From sequence record MZ501090: a DNA stretch of 51,474 bases; one strand, written 5' to 3'. Every line of letters begins with the position of its first letter. Position 1 is the first letter of the stretch. Below the pieces are notes generated by a model. That model did no database searches. It worked only from the letters and a program-made list of their open reading frames with translations, and was not told the DNA's origin. Origin of the DNA: Escherichia phage KarlJaspers. The translations under genes and the position numbers were made by a program. Below are positions 34,470 to 49,013 of this stretch, piece after piece.

Positions 34470-34567
34470 GGATTATTATCATGTGGCGTTTGTTACTTTT
34501 GCCCTTACCTGTTATGATGGCGATCTCTATTGTATACGTTGTCATAATGAGATAAGGAGAATTTTTG

Positions 34568-35683
34568 ATGAAGCAAATCAAAATCACAGATGAACAATTT
34601 ATCAATGAGCGCAAGCAGGGAAAGACATATAAGCAGATCGCTAATGAGTATGGCATGAACGTTCGCAGCATTGAGCGCCGCGCGGCACGATTAGCAAAGC
34701 AAGGTAAAGTTACAACCATCGGATCGCCTGGTTTTGGTGTTACTGGAGAATCAAAGCTAATTGATAAAGATGGCAATGTGGTTATGACATGGATTAAGAC
34801 AAGTAAGGACCGCGAACAGCTAGAAGCATTAATGCAGGCCGCTATTGATGCATTTAGCGAAGAAGTCCCTCGACTTGATCCGCAGCCAGAATCACAAAAG
34901 GATTATAGCGAGACGTTATCACTGTATCCGATCTTTGATATGCACTTGGGCGCAATGGCGCATAAGCATGAATGCGGCGAGAACTGGGATACAGCAACAG
35001 CAGAGCGCGTAATGAATAATTTCATTGATTATTCCATCCAGTGCGCGCCGGATAGCGAAAATGCTGTTTTGCTGATTGGTGGTGACATGCTGCATAGTGA
35101 CGGCCTGGAAGCGGTGACACCTGCAAGCGGTCACGTATTGGATCAAGATAGTCGATACGCAAAACTTGTTTATGTTGCCATCCGGTCAGTGCGTAGAGCA
35201 ATTACAAAGCTGTTATCAAAACACAAAAACGTCGAGATTCAGATCATTGAAGGCAACCACGACCAAAGCGGCATGATCTGGTTGCGCGCAGCAATGGCGG
35301 CAGCATATGAGAATGAGCCACGAGTGCATGTTGATGTGTCTCCGCGAGTAGTTCATCACACACAATATGGCAAAACATTCCTGGCATACCATCACGGGCA
35401 CACTATCCGCAAGCCTGAAACATTGCTCATGATGTGCGCAGCAGACTGGCGCGAAGACTTCGGCAATTCAAAAATGATGTATGCTCACGTAGGGCATTGG
35501 CATCATCAAACAGTAACCGAAACAAGCCTGGGAATTGTTGAAGTGCATAGCACTATGGCGGCAAAAGATGCATATGCGGCGCGCGGTGGATGGCGTTCTC
35601 GCCGCCGTGCGGCTGTTATTGTTTATGATAAAGAATACGGAGAAGTGGGGCGATTTATGCATTATCCAGAAATTGCTGGTTGA
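34568..35683 (+). CDS. calcineurin-like metallophosphoesterase with N-terminal HTH-like region
   Basis: DMHLG, GGDMLH, GNHD, HHGH, GHWHH motifs; N-terminal KTYKQIANEYGMNVRSIERR helix-turn-helix-like. Confidence 0.6.
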   Translation: MKQIKITDEQFINERKQGKTYKQIANEYGMNVRSIERRAARLAKQGKVTTIGSPGFGVTGESKLIDKDGNVVMTWIKTSKDREQLEALMQAAIDAFSEEVPRLDPQPESQKDYSETLSLYPIFDMHLGAMAHKHECGENWDTATAERVMNNFIDYSIQCAPDSENAVLLIGGDMLHSDGLEAVTPASGHVLDQDSRYAKLVYVAIRSVRRAITKLLSKHKNVEIQIIEGNHDQSGMIWLRAAMAAAYENEPRVHVDVSPRVVHHTQYGKTFLAYHHGHTIRKPETLLMMCAADWREDFGNSKMMYAHVGHWHHQTVTETSLGIVEVHSTMAAKDAYAARGGWRSRRRAAVIVYDKEYGEVGRFMHYPEIAG

Positions 35684-41957: not shown

Positions 41958-42263
41958 TTAGTCCAGGAGTTCGATTTCGCGCTCGCCAGTTAACGGATCT
42001 TTAATCCAGAATCCAAGCGCCTCACCGTAAATACCGCCATAGAATCCAAGCGCCGACAGTTCCTCACCTTTAACAAATACCAGATCACCGCTACGGCTTA
42101 CGTGAGACACGTTAACGATAACCGGAAATGTGCGGTTTTTAAATGCAGGCCGCAGGGCGTAACACCCGTTATTGAGAAAACGTGCTTTGCGCTTAACTGG
42201 AATAGGTGCATTGATTCGCGCCATCTTTATTTCTCCTTCATTGTTGATCGTGTTTAACGGCAA
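41958..42263 (-). CDS. hypothetical protein
   Basis: 101 aa ORF. Confidence 0.4.
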   Translation of the reverse strand: MPLNTINNEGEIKMARINAPIPVKRKARFLNNGCYALRPAFKNRTFPVIVNVSHVSRSGDLVFVKGEELSALGFYGGIYGEALGFWIKDPLTGEREIELLD

Positions 42264-42483
42264 TCAGAACATCACAGGACTCGTTAATAAATTTTGCCAT
42301 GCGCTTATCATCACCAACAGGGATTAGCGCATTACACTCGCGCTTGCTACTGAATACCGTCACTTTATGAAACGATGCGAACGGCATCGACGGGAACTCG
42401 ACTGTTTGCGTCAAGATCCGCAATCCCATCTTTTTGGCCCTTACCTGGGCCTCGGCAAGTTCAAAATCCACTTCATTAATCAT
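42238..42483 (-). CDS. hypothetical protein
   Basis: 81 aa ORF. Confidence 0.4.
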   Translation of the reverse strand: MINEVDFELAEAQVRAKKMGLRILTQTVEFPSMPFASFHKVTVFSSKRECNALIPVGDDKRMAKFINESCDVLIAVKHDQQ

Positions 42484-42752
42484 TTCTTGATCTCCTCAGC
42501 AATAAATTTCAGGACTTTGCGCAAAAACACTTCATTATTGATGGTCGCTGGCAATTCCTCTTTCACTTCTTGCGGCAGGTAAACGTTGCCATGCCAGGTC
42601 AAGCAATCGTAGTTGATACGATAAGAGCAAAGCCACTCGCAATCGTTATCCGCTTCCCAAATGCAGAGTTGCAGAACATCGCCGAAGTCTTCAACAGTCA
42701 GGTCCAGACCGTGACGCTTTGCAAAGTTGAAAGTGGTTTTGCTGATGTTCAT
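42480..42752 (-). CDS. hypothetical protein
   Basis: 90 aa ORF, first gene of leftward early operon. Confidence 0.4.
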   Translation of the reverse strand: MNISKTTFNFAKRHGLDLTVEDFGDVLQLCIWEADNDCEWLCSYRINYDCLTWHGNVYLPQEVKEELPATINNEVFLRKVLKFIAEEIKK

Positions 42753-42815
42753 TTGCTTTCTCCTGATGGGTATCTCGTTTCGATGGGATAACTATACCAG
42801 GTTATCCCGATCGTG

Positions 42816-42834
42816 CTTTAACAAAAAGTGCTAT
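42816..42834 (-). promoter_or_regulatory. conserved intergenic motif copy
   Basis: Minus strand ATAGCACTTTTTGTTAAAG, then GGGATAA...TTATCCC hairpin with TATAGT. Confidence 0.6.
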
Positions 42835-43099
42835 TTGCTGACTGGTCATTATTCCACATATTCCATTAATCAGGAATAACAGGAATAATTCATTCGCGAT
42901 CACCTGGATTGTGAGACTTTGAGTTTGATCAATTTTAATCAGTTGATTAACTTTTTGTGTGGAGGGGATAGAGAAATGCGGCCCTCTTGCATCCTTTCCG
43001 GCAATCCTGGCGCGCACATCTGTTATTTCTGTTCCCCGTGTTATCTCAAATAAGCCTCCGCACTTTTAGATAACAGAATCGGCGTTCATCAACAAAAAG

Positions 43100-43300
43100 A
43101 ACAAAATAAAATTTATATATATACCCATAAAATCAATAAGTTAGTTATATATGTATTTATATTTGTTATTTACTGTTGAGCTTGTTCTATTGGTATATGG
43201 TGGGGTGGTATTGTTTGTGGTGATATGTATGTGTGATTGTATATTTTTTAATCAATGGTGATGTGTGGTGATTTTTGTATGTATATATATGGGTATGGGG
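43100..43300. repeat. AT/GT-rich non-coding island, copy 2 (homologous to 20960-21130)
   Basis: Core AAATCAATAAGTTAGT at 43130-43145 plus GT-rich tracts (GGTGATTTTTGTATG). Confidence 0.7.
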
Positions 43301-43424
43301 CAATCCTCCGTCAACCAAGTCAACAAGGTCATTTTTAACAGAAAAACCAATGGCTTAACTGAAGCATTTTGTTATCTTTAAACACGCCATGCGCCAAAAA
43401 TTGTTATTAAAACACAAAAATACA

Positions 43425-43455
43425 TTGACATGCAGGAAGGGCAAGGCAATAATGC
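43425..43455 (+). promoter_or_regulatory. candidate promoter for rightward early operon
   Basis: TTGACA at 43425-43430; -10 assignment ambiguous (TAATGC at 19 nt). Confidence 0.3.
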
Positions 43456-43489
43456 ATTAAGTTTAAACGCAACAAAAGGAGTAGATGCC

Positions 43490-43960
43490 ATGATCGAAGA
43501 AAATATTAGCACCATGTCGCGTAGTGAGTTCTGCGATATGCTTCGCGACCTGGGCGCGGCAATTGGTAGTGGTGAGCGTAATAATGTATTCATGCCAGCG
43601 CTTTTTTTGTGCGCTAATGTGGAGAACGGCGAAGCAATTACGGCATCGTACATGCGCCAGGTTGTCAACCGCGTACCTGAAGTAAAGCAAAAAGGCGTGA
43701 TCAGCATTAAGCGAAAGGTGACTGATGAGGGTGATGGCTTTGTGTTTGCGCTCACTGAAGCCAAAAGCAAACCTCGTGTTCTGACTGGGGATGATATAGC
43801 GAAACTTGAAATCAAGTGGCGAGCAAAGTTTATTGCTCAACTACTGAAAACACAGCCGCGAATCAGTGATCTGGAAGGTGAGCGCCTGGAGGGTGCGGCA
43901 ATCGCACTTGAGCGAATGAATGAAATGCTCAACGAGATGGTAAAGGTGGGGGATGAATAA
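43490..43960 (+). CDS. hypothetical early protein
   Basis: ATG 43490 with AAGGAG RBS (track start 43430 lacks RBS); 156 aa. Confidence 0.45.
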   Translation: MIEENISTMSRSEFCDMLRDLGAAIGSGERNNVFMPALFLCANVENGEAITASYMRQVVNRVPEVKQKGVISIKRKVTDEGDGFVFALTEAKSKPRVLTGDDIAKLEIKWRAKFIAQLLKTQPRISDLEGERLEGAAIALERMNEMLNEMVKVGDE

Positions 43961-44220
43961 TGAATAAGGCATTAATTGGAGTTTTGATTGCAATTGCTAC
44001 CCTGACCGGATGCGAAAAGGCATCTGAATCAACGGTAGTCGTAGGCGTGGAGTCAGATTTTAAAGTCGGTCGCCTGTTTACTGTTGATGGATGCACTGCG
44101 TACCGATTCTATGACAACGGTCGGGCAATCTATTACACCAATTGTAAGGGCGCAACGGATAGCACATACCGCAGCGGCAAAAACGTAATGCACCAACAAG
44201 TCACAACAGATATGAAATAG
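43960..44220 (+). CDS. early lipoprotein (possible exclusion protein)
   Basis: Signal peptide with lipobox LTGC; 86 aa. Confidence 0.5.
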   Translation: MNKALIGVLIAIATLTGCEKASESTVVVGVESDFKVGRLFTVDGCTAYRFYDNGRAIYYTNCKGATDSTYRSGKNVMHQQVTTDMK

Positions 44221-44236
44221 CACTTTTTGTTAAAAC
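44217..44236 (+). promoter_or_regulatory. conserved intergenic motif copy
   Basis: ATAGCACTTTTTGTTAAAAC overlapping stop; GCCAGG-tgcaaat-CCTGGC hairpin then ATAATA. Confidence 0.6.
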
Positions 44237-44292
44237 GCCAGGTGCAAATCCTGGCATAATAGCCTCATCGAAACGAGATTGAGGAAAACAAA

Positions 44293-44478
44293 ATGGCACG
44301 TCGCATTACCAAAGACCTTAAAGTACTGAACAAAGAAAACGTAGTTAAAATCCTGGTAATCTGGGGATACAACGAAGAAACAGCAAAGCAGAAGGTAGAT
44401 GCGGGTTATGACCTGGCTGTAAAAGCAATGCCAAACGACGACGCCAAAGGCATTGCAAACTATGTAGCTTTCTTTTAA
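44293..44478 (+). CDS. hypothetical protein
   Basis: 61 aa ORF with GAGGAAAA RBS. Confidence 0.4.
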   Translation: MARRITKDLKVLNKENVVKILVIWGYNEETAKQKVDAGYDLAVKAMPNDDAKGIANYVAFF

Positions 44479-44493
44479 TTAGCAGGTGAATAA

Positions 44494-44679
44494 ATGAAAA
44501 CGAAATTAGTCCATAAATCAGAAATCAAGATCGGCGATACTGTGATTCACAACGGAGAGCTTAGAACGGTTGGCAAAGAGTCAATAAGCCGCGATGAATT
44601 TATGGGGATCTTGTTGTTCGGTGACTCTTATCGGCTGGGTTATAAAATGGTTGAGCTTGTGGAAGAGGTAAAATTCTAA
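44494..44679 (+). CDS. hypothetical protein
   Basis: 61 aa ORF. Confidence 0.4.
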   Translation: MKTKLVHKSEIKIGDTVIHNGELRTVGKESISRDEFMGILLFGDSYRLGYKMVELVEEVKF

Positions 44680-44699
44680 ATAGCACTTTTTGTTAAAAC
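44680..44699 (+). promoter_or_regulatory. conserved intergenic motif copy
   Basis: ATAGCACTTTTTGTTAAAAC directly after stop TAA; ATAATA downstream. Confidence 0.55.
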
Positions 44700-44777
44700 T
44701 CAAAAACGATAACCAGGCATAATACACACATAGGGCGGCACGGCGTCGCCCAGTTAAACCAATCAGGAGAAAGCACT

Positions 44778-45668
44778 ATGTTAAAACTTGCTAACATTAA
44801 ATTCCCGATCACCTTCGAATCTCGCGGCGTTGGTCACTTCATGTTTTCCGACAAAAATACATGCACTAAGTTTAACGAATACGGAAAGCCTGATGTTTCA
44901 ACAATGGAGATTGAGCACCTCATTGATGCGCACAATAAGCACTACAACTCGCTTAAAGACTATGGCTACGCAATGCCAGGCTATACATGTTTTCACTACA
45001 AGCCATATAAGGGCCAGGTGTTACCAGTGCGCTCACCGGAACGCGCAGAGATTCCGATGGTCGAGATGAAAACCTGCGACTATAAAAAATTGTGGTGCTT
45101 AAGAGTGGATAACATCAAGTATCCGATCACGTTCTACACGGCTGGTAATTCAACGATTCGCTTCACATCGCGCGAAAATGGCGTTTATAGCGATGGTACG
45201 AAATCAGAGTTGAAAGTTGATTTCTTTGTCAATGGTCACAACAAATTCAATCCGCACAACGAAGAGGATAAGGTTTACTACGTGGAAGACATTACAAAAC
45301 ACTTGTTTGGAGATGCGCCAATTGGCGGCGGGAAGACGTCAATTCAGCAAATCATTGGCGAGGAGATCCACAAGGCAGCCGTTAAAATGAAAGCACCTGT
45401 AGGCTGGCGTATTGACAAGAGCGCCTTTGCATATCAAGAAATCGTAACGCAGGGCAAAATTGAAGATATGCCGCTTGGCGCTTCAATCATCGGCATCAGA
45501 GACAATAACGGCGACTGGAATGATGTTTCATTCCCTGTCAAGCGGATCGAGTTGCACGAAGACCTGATTTGCATCCTGGCGCATCATGGCAGCTATAAGG
45601 ACAAGCCATTCGCCGCCGAGCTTAACATCAAGCGCGGAACTATGGTTAAGTGGAAAGTCAAAGTGTAA
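44778..45668 (+). CDS. hypothetical protein with internal duplication
   Basis: 296 aa; NIKFPITFESRG (N-terminus) repeated as NIKYPITFYTAGN about 100 residues later. Confidence 0.45.
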   Translation: MLKLANIKFPITFESRGVGHFMFSDKNTCTKFNEYGKPDVSTMEIEHLIDAHNKHYNSLKDYGYAMPGYTCFHYKPYKGQVLPVRSPERAEIPMVEMKTCDYKKLWCLRVDNIKYPITFYTAGNSTIRFTSRENGVYSDGTKSELKVDFFVNGHNKFNPHNEEDKVYYVEDITKHLFGDAPIGGGKTSIQQIIGEEIHKAAVKMKAPVGWRIDKSAFAYQEIVTQGKIEDMPLGASIIGIRDNNGDWNDVSFPVKRIELHEDLICILAHHGSYKDKPFAAELNIKRGTMVKWKVKV

Positions 45669-45688
45669 ATAGCACGAATTGTTAAAAC
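45669..45688 (+). promoter_or_regulatory. conserved intergenic motif copy (GAATT variant)
   Basis: ATAGCACGAATTGTTAAAAC; GGCC...TATAAT...GGCC downstream. Confidence 0.55.
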
Positions 45689-45741
45689 TCAAATGTGGGG
45701 CCAGGTATAATGGCCTCACTTTCAACGAAGGAGATAAAACG

Positions 45742-45960
45742 ATGTACATTAGCAAGAAGATGAAATGCGTTTCCGTTAATTATGGTTGTGCTGGAATGTT
45801 CAAGCCTGGCGAAATCTATACGGCGCAAAAACTGAAATCATCAACCGGATCCTTTTACGTCAGCAACAGCAAAGGGCATCGCATGTTCCTGAACGGAGGT
45901 GAAGGCACTAAGGTTATGGCACACGCTATGGTAATTGCTGAATTTGAGGAAGTGAAATAA
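45742..45960 (+). CDS. hypothetical protein
   Basis: ATG 45742 with AAGGAG RBS; 72 aa. Confidence 0.4.
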   Translation: MYISKKMKCVSVNYGCAGMFKPGEIYTAQKLKSSTGSFYVSNSKGHRMFLNGGEGTKVMAHAMVIAEFEEVK

Positions 45961-46499
45961 TGAAAAAATACGAATTTGAACTTTGGGGCAGCAAATACCA
46001 TTTTTCCACTAGCAAGCCGATTGTTATCGTTGACCTGGACGGAACGTTATCAGACGGAACGCATCGCTTACACCTTCTTCCGACAGAGGATTTACACCTT
46101 ACAGAAAGCTGGTCTGAGTTCAATAAGGCGGCTGTTGGCGATTCGCCGATTAAGAGCACTGTTGCAGTGGTTAACGGTTTGTGGATGTCAGGATTTGCCA
46201 TCGTTATCCTGACCGGACGTAGCGATGAAGTGATGGAGGACACCTGCAAATGGATTAACGAAAACGGCATCAAGTACGATGCGTTAATCATGCGCCGCAA
46301 GGAAGACAACCGCAAAGACACAATCATCAAAGAAGAAGTCTTGCGCGCTATCGGACTGGAAAACATTGTGTGCGCTTTTGATGATTCGCCGAACGTGGTT
46401 AAGCACTTCCGAAGCCTGGGAATCACAACCTATCAGGTCACGGAATACGACAAGCCACACAATCATATCCAATCGCATGGCGTGGAGGAATTGAAATGA
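45960..46499 (+). CDS. HAD-family phosphatase (T4 Pnk phosphatase-domain-like)
   Basis: DLDGT motif I, TGR motif II, RKDTIIKEEVL and FDDSP; resembles T4 Pnk phosphatase (recalled from memory). Confidence 0.55.
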   Translation: MKKYEFELWGSKYHFSTSKPIVIVDLDGTLSDGTHRLHLLPTEDLHLTESWSEFNKAAVGDSPIKSTVAVVNGLWMSGFAIVILTGRSDEVMEDTCKWINENGIKYDALIMRRKEDNRKDTIIKEEVLRAIGLENIVCAFDDSPNVVKHFRSLGITTYQVTEYDKPHNHIQSHGVEELK

Positions 46500-46657
46500 C
46501 CTGGATTCTATTTGTGATTATCACAAGCTACAATTCAGCCGCCATTGAGTCTCGCGAGTTCCACGGTGAATCAAGATGTCAGGCCGCGAGAGAGCAAGTA
46601 ATTTTGCATATGTCAGATAACGATAAAGAAGTTGAAGTATTCTGCATTCGTAAATAG
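46496..46657 (+). CDS. hypothetical small protein (53 aa)
   Basis: ORF below track cutoff; hydrophobic N-terminus WILFVIITSY; stop TAG inside motif copy. Confidence 0.3.
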   Translation: MTWILFVIITSYNSAAIESREFHGESRCQAAREQVILHMSDNDKEVEVFCIRK

Positions 46658-46673
46658 CACTTTTTGCAAAAAC
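46654..46673 (+). promoter_or_regulatory. conserved intergenic motif copy (variant)
   Basis: ATAGCACTTTTTGCAAAAAC; GGGCTT...AAGCCC hairpin enclosing TATAGT downstream. Confidence 0.55.
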
Positions 46674-46728
46674 AGATTGTCGGGCTTGCGGTATAGTAAG
46701 CCCATCGACAACAAACGAGGATTAAATC

Positions 46729-46992
46729 ATGGTTAATAAAGTTGAGTTTTTCAAAGCGGTAGACAAGATTGACGGCGCGCCAAGTTTCTTTGCTATCCAT
46801 TCCATTGACGGCGAAGACGTTGAATACAACGTGATTAGTCGAGACGGTATATCAAAACTTAGTGACCTGGTGGGTTATATTGTGGCGAACGGGAAATGTG
46901 CATGGCCCGATTCACCACGAGAGCCGCGCCGCCGCGACATGCAAAATCCAGTTCTGCTTTACACGCTGGTAATTGAAGTAGTCAACAAATGA
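46729..46992 (+). CDS. hypothetical protein
   Basis: 87 aa with GAGGA RBS. Confidence 0.4.
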   Translation: MVNKVEFFKAVDKIDGAPSFFAIHSIDGEDVEYNVISRDGISKLSDLVGYIVANGKCAWPDSPREPRRRDMQNPVLLYTLVIEVVNK

Positions 46993-47174
46993 TTTGGTTA
47001 CTTGTATTTTTAGTAGTTTTCTTTTATATTTCAGGCTTATTCATCTTCCGCGCATTGGTTAAAGAGTGTGATTGCACTGATAAAGATCAGCCTCTTGTTC
47101 TGATGTTCTGGTTTGTGTGGTTTTGGGTGGCGCTTTACCAGATTGTACGGGATGAAAGCGGTTTTAAGTGGTGA
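46989..47174 (+). CDS. small membrane protein (two predicted TM helices)
   Basis: 61 aa; LLVFLVVFFYISGLFIF and LVLMFWFVWFWVALY hydrophobic stretches. Confidence 0.4.
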   Translation: MIWLLVFLVVFFYISGLFIFRALVKECDCTDKDQPLVLMFWFVWFWVALYQIVRDESGFKW

Positions 47175-47229
47175 TTCTTACTATAGCGCATTCACGCAGT
47201 GCGCTATGTTGAGATAACAACAGGAGTTC

Positions 47230-47367
47230 ATGAAGATGCGAAACTTCGAAAAAATCGTAACCAAGAAAAAGCGCTACAGCTACGACGAGCACCGCGAGAT
47301 GAATCAACGCTATCGCAAGAAGCGCCAGCGCACAGGTAAACATTCAAGCAGATATGGAGAAAACTAA
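47230..47367 (+). CDS. hypothetical small basic protein (45 aa)
   Basis: CAGGAG RBS; Lys/Arg-rich; stop adjoins kinase start; not in ORF track. Confidence 0.3.
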   Translation: MKMRNFEKIVTKKKRYSYDEHREMNQRYRKKRQRTGKHSSRYGEN

Positions 47368-47368
47368 T

Positions 47369-47959
47369 ATGAAGCGAGACATTATCATCCTTAACGGACC
47401 GCCAGGAGTTGGCAAGGATACGCTTGCGGCATACTTAACTGGCCATCGTTACGCAGCCGTTAAAGCGTCGTTTAAGCAACCGATGTTTGATATTGCATTC
47501 TCCATGCTTGGCGTTTACCTATATGACGAGTTCATTGATCTGTATAACGACCGCGAGCAGAAAGAAAAGCCTCAAGCAATCTTGCAAGGCAATTCGCCTC
47601 GCAAGTTCATGATCTGGATTAGCGAAGAAGTCATGAAGCCAGCTTTTGGCGAGCAATATTTCGGAAATCGCATGGTTGAGCAAGTACACGAGATGTACAG
47701 AGATTTGGCTGTTGTAATTAGTGATGGCGGATTCCCTGAAGAAATCAAGCCGCTCGTTAAGGCAGGCCATGAAGTTCACATTTGCCGACTGCATCGCGAA
47801 GGATTCACGTTTGATGGCGATTCGCGAAACTATATTGACCTGAGCGGATACCATCACCGAGTCAAGCATTACGACTTCACAATGATTGATGGCGAGCCAG
47901 AAAAGACTGTTGACGAGATCATCAAAACGGTGCAGTGGAAACACACAAAGATTGAATAG
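47369..47959 (+). CDS. P-loop nucleotide kinase (dNMP kinase-like, putative)
   Basis: Walker A GPPGVGKDT near N-terminus; ATG 47369 preferred over 47354 (GGAG 9 nt upstream). Confidence 0.5.
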   Translation: MKRDIIILNGPPGVGKDTLAAYLTGHRYAAVKASFKQPMFDIAFSMLGVYLYDEFIDLYNDREQKEKPQAILQGNSPRKFMIWISEEVMKPAFGEQYFGNRMVEQVHEMYRDLAVVISDGGFPEEIKPLVKAGHEVHICRLHREGFTFDGDSRNYIDLSGYHHRVKHYDFTMIDGEPEKTVDEIIKTVQWKHTKIE

Positions 47960-47975
47960 CACGAATTGCTAAAAG
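47956..47975 (+). promoter_or_regulatory. conserved intergenic motif copy (GAATT variant)
   Basis: ATAGCACGAATTGCTAAAAG overlapping stop TAG; TATAAT downstream. Confidence 0.5.
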
Positions 47976-48029
47976 CGGGGCACAATGCCTCGCTATAATA
48001 CAAACACCAATCAACGAGAGGAAATCATC

Positions 48030-48431
48030 ATGGTAGAGTTAAACGACATTCGCGTTGGGACAAAATTTCGCGTAACCTGGGCAGATAAATATTGCGGAGT
48101 TAGCAAGGGCCAGATTGTTACTGTGGATAGTATTTATCGCGGATGCAGCAAAGACTTTCGGCGCCCACGCATCAAGAATGGCTATATCATTACTCGCCGT
48201 TTTGGGTTTGATCATTATTGCGTAGTGTCAACTCAAGGCGCTTTGATTGAGCTTAAGCGAATAAGCGATCATCGCGGCTGTCATGTTAAGACAATGAAAA
48301 CACCATTTCAGCGAGCGCGATACGATGCGCGACGGATGCGCCGACTTGCTCGAAATGCGATCAAGTTCAAAAAGCCTGGCAGTAATTTTTACAGAATGTA
48401 CAAAGGGATTGCGCGAAATGCTGGGAAATAA
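48030..48431 (+). CDS. hypothetical protein
   Basis: ATG 48030 with GAGAGGAAA RBS; basic C-terminus. Confidence 0.4.
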   Translation: MVELNDIRVGTKFRVTWADKYCGVSKGQIVTVDSIYRGCSKDFRRPRIKNGYIITRRFGFDHYCVVSTQGALIELKRISDHRGCHVKTMKTPFQRARYDARRMRRLARNAIKFKKPGSNFYRMYKGIARNAGK

Positions 48432-48530
48432 CAACAACGCAACCAATCCAAAGCCGCCATTTGATTTTCATGAAATCATGATTGTGTTATTCTTGATTCT
48501 CTTAGTTGTTTATTCAGTGAGGGCCGCAAT

Positions 48531-48794
48531 ATGGTTTTTAATGCACTAAAACGAATCTTTAAACCTGAATACCGGATCGTTGCTTGCACAGAATGTAAGA
48601 TTTATTACCTGCAACGCCGCCGCGTTATTAGTGGGGATTGTGAATATCTAACTGATGATGCTTTCGGATTTTGGGCTATGGAGTTCAATAGCTACAGCGA
48701 AGCGCGTGAATACGCTAAAAAGTTGCACAAGTTCAGACCTTACAAGCTGCGTTTGCTGGTTGTCAAAAAATGCGATGTGTGGGATCACGAATGA
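48531..48794 (+). CDS. hypothetical protein
   Basis: 87 aa ORF. Confidence 0.35.
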   Translation: MVFNALKRIFKPEYRIVACTECKIYYLQRRRVISGDCEYLTDDAFGFWAMEFNSYSEAREYAKKLHKFRPYKLRLLVVKKCDVWDHE

Positions 48795-48970
48795 AAAGAG
48801 TAATTATCATTTTTATTGCCGTTATCGCTGGTTGTTACCTGGCTTATAATTATAGCGGCATTGTTGAGTCAATCGGCGGGTTGATTATCTTCATGGCTGG
48901 TGGGTATGCTGGCTATTGTGATGGATTCGAGAACGGAAAGCGTTACGTGCTGACCGGAAAAAAGAAGTAA
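48791..48970 (+). CDS. small membrane protein
   Basis: MKRVIIIFIAVIAGCYLAY and GGLIIFMAGGYAGY hydrophobic segments. Confidence 0.35.
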   Translation: MKRVIIIFIAVIAGCYLAYNYSGIVESIGGLIIFMAGGYAGYCDGFENGKRYVLTGKKK

Positions 48971-49013
48971 TGTTAACCGCGCCGCTTCGGTGGCGCTAAA
49001 AGGAGGAAACAAA

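Follow-up and report, generated by a model that had tools for sequence, protein, structure and literature searches.

The genome of Escherichia phage KarlJaspers (MZ501090) was analyzed as one strand of 51,474 nucleotides (nt), referred to here as the window. It encodes a HAD-type phosphatase followed, on the same strand, by a P-loop kinase, which raises the question of whether the two genes represent a polynucleotide kinase/phosphatase (Pnkp) split into its halves or serve nucleotide metabolism. A preliminary description of the sequence had regarded both a split Pnk-like end-healing function and an independent nucleotidase plus deoxynucleoside monophosphate (dNMP) kinase as plausible. Our analysis suggests that the phosphatase is a Pnkp-type enzyme standing alone, that the kinase is of the T4 gp1/T5 Dnk type, and that the two genes form a conserved module that, on balance, probably handles mononucleotides released by breakdown of the host chromosome.

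The phosphatase open reading frame (ORF) and the HAD motifs quoted in the preliminary description (Table 1) exist and are not due to chance. Residues 21-162 of the protein match the Pfam profile HAD_PNKP (PF25109) from position 3 to position 140 of its 143, with a score of 80 bits (E = 2.4e-22; gathering cut-off 27.6), the protein falls in phrog_415 (E = 7e-66), and a phmmer search of PDB sequences retrieves Capnocytophaga Pnkp1 (4xrp, 8e-9) and T4 Pnkp (1e-6 to 8e-6), with 5uj0 and 1ltq among the matches. The likeness to the phosphatase domain of T4 Pnkp, which the preliminary description had proposed, is borne out by sequence, profile, and fold. In an hhalign comparison, a profile of 64 diverse stand-alone homologues aligned with residues 157-301 of T4 Pnkp at a probability of 99% (E = 4e-18), and Foldseek returned the T4 Pnkp phosphatase domain and Pnkp1 as the best matches of the AlphaFold model. 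This model has a mean predicted local distance difference test score (pLDDT) of 75, with the core above 88 and both the cap (residues 29-62) and the C-terminal tail below 50; the cap is strongly conserved despite being poorly modeled.

The window phosphatase and the phosphatase domain of T4 Pnkp (PseT; 1LTQ, 2IA5, 5UJ0), its best match among solved structures, belong to the same HAD/DxDxT subfamily. The catalytic and architectural T4 residues between D165 and D278 correspond in the window protein to D25 (D165 in T4 Pnkp), D27 (D167), R36 (R176), D61 (D187), T85 (S211), R87 (R213), R112 (R246), D120 (D254), K124 (K258), D141 (D277), and D142 (D278). The nucleophile, the general acid, the metal ligands, the lysine, and the architectural Arg and Asp are kept, and D25, D27, T29, R36, D61, T85, R87, D120, K124, D141, and D142 are invariant or nearly so across the family, so the predicted active site is intact. 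The sole exception among the mapped residues is R279 of T4 Pnkp, which is Ser143 in the window protein. Different from T4 Pnkp, the window protein also has a cap longer by approximately 14 residues and an extra N-terminal beta-hairpin, and it lacks a kinase domain: it is 179 aa long, a tblastn search with T4 Pnkp against the window aligns residues 152-300 only, and in the bifunctional Pnkp family phrog_505 it covers the phosphatase half alone (positions 158-292 of 295). The family comprises 8778 clusters (50% identity, E up to 0.001), and nearly all of the 150 representatives closest to the window protein stand alone, with lengths of 140-170 aa, only approximately five being fused to a Pnk-type kinase. 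In P0302, P0327, and P0380, the same HAD subfamily with its HRLH-type cap is fused to Pnk-type kinases.

RefSeq, annotations based on PHROGs, and the Drexlerviridae literature label the 179-aa protein "polynucleotide kinase" or "3'-phosphatase, 5'-polynucleotide kinase". The label is a misnomer because the protein has no kinase domain, and, as its PHROG also includes the T5 phosphatase Dmp, it implies a capacity for RNA or DNA repair of which the genome gives no sign. The name of phrog_415 is itself "polynucleotide kinase" although the group holds phosphatase-only proteins and T5 Dmp, and this name has spread to many phage records of proteins lacking a kinase domain, for example, YP_009901449.1 and YP_003880.1. 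In T1, the orthologous phosphatase ST64 is annotated as "polynucleotide kinase" and the kinase ST62 as hypothetical; papers on T1-like phages name the pair PNK and dNMP kinase (PMC13164509, PMC11447400).

The kinase ORF and its N-terminal Walker A motif are present as described. Between the mechanical ORF start at 47354 and the alternative start at 47369, the latter, on which the preliminary description had settled, is preferred because it is preceded by GGAG at a distance of 9 nt and because almost every homologue begins with MKRD and has a length of approximately 196 aa. The protein falls in phrog_139 (E = 5.8e-50), as do T4 gp1 (1.8e-65) and T5 Dnk (1.4e-51), whose dNMP kinase activity is established by experiment. 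When profiles are compared, T5 Dnk aligns over 69 columns (95% probability) and T4 gp1 over 73, and the aligned columns include the unusual GKDT P-loop, the SF(K/A)xP segment that follows strand 2, and a DR..KE segment. A Foldseek search with the AlphaFold model (pLDDT 92.7) places T4 dNMP kinase (1DEK) first, with a template modeling (TM) score of 0.71; all other matches score 0.55 or lower, the adenylate kinases approximately 0.45. Searches of Pfam and NCBIfam returned generic, sub-threshold P-loop hits only, phmmer against PDB sequences found nothing significant, and the relationship to 1DEK shows by profile and fold only. Compared with T4 gp1 and T5 Dnk (241-250 aa), the window kinase is shorter and has approximately 15-17% identity to 1DEK; kinases of the window type are coupled or fused to a phosphatase, and gp1 and Dnk are not.

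The resemblance to polynucleotide kinases is confined to one element, since hhalign against T4 Pnkp aligns a 27-residue P-loop stretch alone. In T4 Pnk, the general base Asp35 and Arg38 are essential residues of the 5'-OH acceptor site (PMC2831316). No counterpart of this Asp35/Arg38 motif was found in the window kinase, where the segment reads S34-F35-K36-x-P38, invariant in 59 homologues, and Lys36 occupies the place of Asp35 in the alignment. The homologues also share four invariant Arg and several invariant Lys. Because of its phrog_139 membership, its 1DEK-like fold, the P-loop-only match to Pnkp, and the lack of Asp35 and Arg38, the enzyme is predicted to be a nucleotide kinase of the gp1/Dnk type that does not descend from polynucleotide kinases. 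The profile and structure comparisons that had been proposed as a check thus lead from the phosphatase to T4 Pnkp and Pnkp1 and from the kinase to gp1/Dnk and 1DEK. A split Pnk in the sense of the preliminary description is not borne out, as T4 Pnkp finds its phosphatase half alone in the window; the dNMP kinase it had offered as the other choice holds, and the independence of the two enzymes does not, given the linkage that follows.

We placed both genes by tblastn in 156 IMG/VR loci anchored on relatives of the phosphatase or of the kinase; these are the best-scoring 80 loci per search, overlapping in contigs, and the counts describe Drexlerviridae-like phages and a few others. The kinase gene lies downstream of the phosphatase gene on one strand in all 80 phosphatase-anchored loci, and the phosphatase gene precedes the kinase gene on one strand in 70 of the 80 kinase-anchored loci. 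Order and strand are invariant in the 146 loci that contain both genes, across approximate identities to the window proteins of 40-97% (kinase) and 43-97% (phosphatase). Of the phosphatase-anchored loci, 31 have a gap of at most 25 bp between the genes, 12 a gap of 26-250 bp, 21 a gap of 251-1000 bp, and 16 a gap exceeding 1 kb. Webervirus-like Klebsiella phages show a 4-bp ATGA in which the phosphatase stop and the kinase start overlap.

Fusions of the two proteins were found in three protein clusters, P0256, P0391 (74% identical to P0256), and P0259 (37% identical to P0256). According to PHROG domain hits, the phosphatase is N-terminal and the phrog_139-type kinase C-terminal, the reverse of the layout of T4 Pnkp. 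Three contigs carry the P0256 fusion as an intact ORF, and one of these contigs is phage-like and 60.7 kb long. The fusions, which came from a word-indexed search, are real but rare. Judged from these comparisons, the two genes form a conserved module that is often translationally coupled and occasionally fused. On the 60.7-kb contig (L164, 8001-12436), P0256 is followed by a 386-aa protein, a gene of the PAPS-reductase family, and a Dam-type methyltransferase gene.

A third gene often accompanies the pair. In approximately 60 loci, a homologue (42-64% identity) of the SbcD/Mre11-like nuclease of phrog_704 lies directly upstream of the phosphatase gene on the same strand, starting approximately 1.1-1.2 kb before it, so that nuclease, phosphatase, and kinase make up a three-gene cluster. 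The corresponding gene of the window is 10 kb away from the pair, and the nuclease is a possible third member of the module. The KanT1 paper also places a nuclease beside the pair and suggests a role in nucleotide supply (PMC13164509). Ten kinase loci lack the phosphatase gene; they include T7-like genomes (L042, L044, L048; approximately 44 kb), where the kinase gene comes immediately after genes for a gp6-like 5'-3' exonuclease and a gp3-like endonuclease VII. In T7, gp3 and gp6 are genes of host-DNA degradation.

The phosphatase and kinase genes of T1 (ST64, 55% identity, and ST62, 45%) are orthologues with order and strand unchanged, and Gp09/Gp14 of TLS are orthologues of the pair as well. 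Both genes are therefore already known, and their orthologues have been annotated in T1 since its genome was published. In the literature searched, it appears undescribed that the protein called PNK is phosphatase-only and shares its family with T5 Dmp; likewise, the pairing with a gp1-type kinase in invariant order, often coupled and sometimes fused, and the frequent trio with an SbcD-like nuclease appear not to have been described.

T5 likewise encodes members of the same two families, Dmp of phrog_415 and Dnk of phrog_139. T5 Dmp (T5.001) is a deoxynucleoside 5'-monophosphatase according to Mozer and Warner 1977, as quoted in PMC12265719, and to a 2026 bioRxiv paper. It is a stand-alone protein that matches phrog_415 over its full length (3.6e-57) and shares the motifs DLDGT..HR, T-x-R, KDxxxK, and DD with the window phosphatase; against the profile of the stand-alone family, it aligns over 133 columns with all four motifs (83% probability). 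The two proteins are distant, pairwise BLASTP aligning motif I only, and Dmp has no Pfam hit. An assignment of Dmp to the HD-domain enzymes was considered and rejected on the strength of its HAD motifs and phrog_415 membership. T5 differs from the window in that Dmp is 244 aa long and its gene is pre-early, approximately 21 kb from dnk and uncoupled from it. The phages also differ in that T5 discards host nucleotides (PMC12265719) and T1-like phages re-use them (PMC11447400). Family membership does not settle the substrate of the window phosphatase because the clade holds both T4 Pnkp, which acts on polynucleotide 3' ends and deoxynucleoside 3'-monophosphates (3'-dNMPs), and T5 Dmp, which acts on 5'-dNMPs.

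Homology, intact active-site residues, linkage, fusions, and gene neighborhood are observed; what the two enzymes act on, in which sequence, and how this ties in with recycling of host DNA is inferred as follows. The host chromosome would be broken down and mononucleotides released, and the gp1/Dnk-type kinase would convert 5'-dNMPs into deoxynucleoside diphosphates, which would pass to the host nucleoside-diphosphate kinase and then to the host replisome, since T1-like phages encode no DNA polymerase. The phosphatase would be a Pnkp-type phosphomonoesterase acting on the same nucleotide pool. Most likely, its substrates would be 3'-dNMPs, deoxynucleoside 3',5'-bisphosphates, or fragments ending in a 3'-phosphate, with removal of the 3'-phosphate yielding a usable 5'-dNMP or an unblocked 3'-OH end that would feed the kinase or permit further digestion. 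Less likely, it might trim unwanted 5'-(deoxy)nucleoside monophosphates as T5 Dmp does. The 3'-specific activity is favored because a 5'-nucleotidase together with a dNMP kinase would form a futile cycle, opposing the re-use of host nucleotides, and because the closest characterized relative acts in this way.

Several lines of evidence are consistent with such a nucleotide-pool module. T1 and TLS, which encode no DNA polymerase, break down the host chromosome for re-use of its nucleotides, and the responsible genes have not been identified (PMC11447400). The presence of T5 Dmp in phrog_415 and the use of 3'-dTMP as a standard assay substrate of the T4 Pnkp phosphatase (PMC3592404) point to mononucleotides. 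The occurrence of the kinase without phosphatase beside gp6- and gp3-like genes, the intact catalytic residues of the phosphatase, the linkage of the two genes, their fusions, the SbcD-like neighbor, the loss of the R279 equivalent, and the lack of ligase and tRNA partners would also fit this role. The conserved, coupled, and sometimes fused cluster of nuclease, phosphatase, and dNMP kinase is thus a concrete candidate for the genes by which T1-like phages re-use host nucleotides.

The residue after motif IV bears on the size of the substrate. In T4 Pnkp, Arg279 is reported to hold, together with Arg246, the penultimate phosphodiester of a polynucleotide. The R246 equivalent is retained in the window phosphatase. 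The R279 position is Ser, Asn, Leu, or Asp in nearly all of the 30 closest cluster representatives and in both fusion proteins among them; the four representatives in which an N-terminal Pnk-type P-loop is recognizable all have Arg there. Its loss in the clade of the window protein and in the fusions, compared with its retention in the Pnk-fused proteins, hints at small substrates. As a clean marker separating polynucleotide from mononucleotide enzymes, Arg after motif IV was tried and found to be partial only, most distant stand-alone homologues keeping it.

Some observations weigh against a nucleotide-pool function. The argument from the R279 position is weak, since many distant stand-alone homologues of the phosphatase keep Arg there. 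The phosphatase is clearly closer to the end-healing phosphatases (Pnkp1, and T4 Pnkp at 99%) than to T5 Dmp (83%), and its substrate specificity is not readable from the model, given the cap with pLDDT below 50. The Pfam profile DNMK (PF21448) gave no hit to the kinase at E up to 1; this model is narrow, as even T5 Dnk matches only part of it (43 bits). The kinase also misses approximately 45 residues of gp1, and its acceptor site could differ. The functions of the T1-like phosphatase and kinase have been assigned by homology. Finally, because joining a 5'-nucleotidase with a dNMP kinase would only drive futile cycling, the assumption of 3'-specific or otherwise non-overlapping substrates is needed.

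Among the alternatives, the one that survives best, and which we consider possible but rather unlikely, is that two separate enzymes share an early operon: a polynucleotide 3'-phosphatase that cleans DNA ends and an ordinary dNMP kinase, linked by co-regulation and shared ancestry and not by coupled chemistry. The family assignments of both proteins would fit, the genes for the corresponding functions lie far apart in T4 and in T5, the kinase is found alone in some loci, and in Tempevirinae and T1, a gap of 0.7-2.2 kb holding unrelated small ORFs or an HNH endonuclease does no apparent harm. Shared regulation alone is weakened, however, because the invariant order and strand in 146 loci, the common 4-bp overlaps, and the independent-looking fusions, including the divergent P0259, exceed its usual trace.

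It is unlikely, in our estimate, that the coupled or fused pair is a previously unrecognized bifunctional enzyme, which could either heal ends, with the domain order reversed, or carry out sequential salvage. In the former case, a Pnkp-type 3'-phosphatase would work with a non-orthologous gp1-type kinase; in the latter, the 3'-phosphate would be stripped from 3',5'-bisphosphates or other 3'-phosphate products and the resulting 5'-dNMP passed straight to the kinase. Sequential action or a complex, if true, would represent a new mode of pairing a Pnkp-type phosphatase with a kinase, and a bifunctional enzyme, together with the SbcD-like nuclease, would provide what has long been sought in T1-like phages, the machinery for converting the host chromosome into precursors of phage DNA.

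End healing by a non-orthologous two-subunit, sometimes fused enzyme, that is, a functional "split Pnkp" in reverse domain order, seems decidedly unlikely. The phosphatase would remove 3'-phosphates, the recruited gp1-like kinase would phosphorylate 5'-OH ends of DNA or RNA, and a host ligase could then seal nicks left by nucleases with 3'-phosphate/5'-OH chemistry; the NAD-dependent DNA ligase of the host could seal DNA. The similarity of the kinase to Pnk, confined to the P-loop, the Lys36 in place of Asp35 without an equivalent of Arg38, and the dNMP and nucleoside monophosphate kinases as its best relatives in sequence and fold all speak against it, as do the invariant Arg/Lys pattern, which would be typical of kinases with phosphate acceptors, the loss of R279 in the phosphatase, and the T7-type host-DNA nucleases that adjoin the kinase where the phosphatase is missing. 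In its favor, T4 Pnkp and Pnkp1 are the nearest characterized relatives of the phosphatase, whose subfamily is fused to Pnk-type kinases in three clusters; a phosphatase coupled or fused to a P-loop kinase mirrors the logic of Pnkp, and the Mre11/SbcD-like nuclease adjoining in approximately 60 loci would suit an end-processing set.

The search for a sealing partner also counts against end healing. In the Pnkp1-Rnl-Hen1 RNA repair complex, Capnocytophaga Pnkp1 (4XRP), the best phmmer match over the phosphatase core, is bifunctional with a Pnk-type kinase and has a ligase and Hen1 as partners, none of which was found in the window; the partner RNA ligase of T4 Pnkp was not found there either. 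Consistent with the preliminary description, which had seen no RNA ligase motif nearby, tblastn of T4 Rnl1 and T4 DNA ligase against the window gave no match (best E 0.3), although very remote ligases could escape such a search, and no ligase is listed in annotated close relatives. Occurrences of KxDG in the window were considered as ligase motifs; all are in ORFs far from the pair and were taken as chance. No tRNA gene was found in a search of the whole window, and no Rnl1-type ligase or Pnk-type kinase domain within 10 kb in the 156 loci. An RNA repair cassette of Pnkp, ligase, and tRNA was considered and rejected, with no tRNA gene in the window and no Rnl1 or ligase similarity in the window or the 156 related loci.

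Counter-defense is very improbable; here, the pair would act against host dGTPases, dCTP deaminases, or Clover-type systems by restoring or reshaping the nucleotide pool, or it would destroy a phosphorylated signaling nucleotide. In its favor, mutations that escape the Clover dGTPase defense map to T5 Dmp, a phrog_415 member that modulates deoxynucleoside triphosphate levels (PMC12265719), and the module lies in a variable small-ORF region. Against it, the module is nearly universal in the family, unlike the usually patchy accessory anti-defense genes, and no sequence feature indicates a signaling-nucleotide substrate.

Table 1. Positions of the module, its motifs, and associated genes in the window.
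Feature	Position (nt)	Strand	Length	Remarks
SbcD/Mre11-like metallophosphoesterase	34565..35683	+	372 aa	phrog_704 "DNA repair exonuclease" (1.4e-150)
DUF7174 protein	43430-43960			Pfam 2.8e-45; heads the rightward small-ORF block containing the module
ORF with apparent internal duplication	44778-45668		296 aa	matches phrog_7116
HAD phosphatase, Pnkp type (DxDxT), stand-alone	45960..46499	+	179 aa	ATG start
HAD motif I	46032-46046			DLDGT (D25-T29)
HAD motif II	46212-46220			TGR (T85-G-R87)
HAD motif III	46311-46331			R118..K124; RKDT = R118-T121
HAD motif IV	46380-46388			D141-D142-S143; FDDSP = F140-P144
Small ORF	46496..46657	+	53 aa	overlaps HAD stop by 4 bp; phrog_5579 (1.6e-7); in few related loci
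Small ORF	46729..46992	+	87 aa	phrog_25318 (2.7e-6); found by tblastn in 42 of 146 loci, with variable location
Small ORF, hydrophobic	46989..47174	+	61 aa	phrog_9755 (2.4e-28); tblastn match in 32 of 146 loci
Very basic ORF	47230..47367	+	45 aa	ends 1 nt before kinase start; phrog_8176 (4e-4)
Predicted P-loop kinase, T4 gp1/T5 Dnk (dNMP kinase) type	47369..47959	+	196 aa	
Kinase Walker A	47396-47422			GPPGVGKDT (residues 10-18)

The 870 bp between the two genes of the window hold four small ORFs and not the two small genes counted earlier: three are supported by PHROG matches, and the fourth is the very basic 45-aa ORF. The latter has a sub-threshold match to Pfam Phage_1_1 (PF08200, T7 gene 1.1; E = 0.022) and a tblastn match in 16 loci. 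The product of the hydrophobic ORF is probably membrane-associated. These four ORFs are patchily conserved elsewhere, which marks the gap as a landing site for small accessory genes. HNH homing-endonuclease genes lie between or beside the phosphatase and kinase genes in T1 (L166, 4948-6534) and in phiE31-2 (L002, 3743-6314); T1 differs from the window in having such a gene between ST64 and ST62 where the window has the small ORFs. With these HNH genes and the variable small ORFs, the gap looks like an insertion hot spot.

The phosphatase gene itself varies at its 3' end. Homologues 84-97% identical to the window protein (P0001, P0003, P0004, and P0027) bear C-terminal additions without counterpart in the window copy: a 206-aa form has a Cys4 zinc-ribbon-like C-terminal segment (KPKIECEGEHCFSVVDGKCLRCG), forms of 236 and 237 aa have a beta-rich C-terminal domain of approximately 57 aa, and both are present in a form of 264 aa. 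The window gene ends after 179 codons, and its stop is overlapped by the 53-aa ORF.

Positions 45000-48500 share 88-95% DNA identity with many Hanrivervirus phages (Drexlerviridae, Tempevirinae) of Escherichia and Shigella, among them egaa, pSf-1, and 2019SD1, and the window is a Hanrivervirus-like T1-type phage of the Drexlerviridae. Terminase genes open the sequence, and the module sits upstream of them in a variable stretch rich in small ORFs; this position, with the many small ORFs around it, suggests an early region. A scan of 42000-49000 for promoters and terminators found fewer promoter-like sites than in shuffled sequences and nothing informative between the phosphatase and kinase genes.

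A homologue of the DUF7174 protein lies 1.7-3 kb upstream of the phosphatase gene in 58 related loci. The product of the nuclease gene may have an N-terminal helix-turn-helix (Pfam HTH_28, sub-threshold). In the 296-aa ORF product, phrog_7116 matches two stretches, and NIKFPITFESRG and NIKYPITFYTAG recur approximately 100 residues apart. Records labeled as Campylobacter jejuni phages (MG065685, MG065670, and about 20-39 other "Campylobacter phage" entries) encode proteins 93-94% identical to the window phosphatase and kinase; these records are probably mislabeled or contaminant T1-like sequences.

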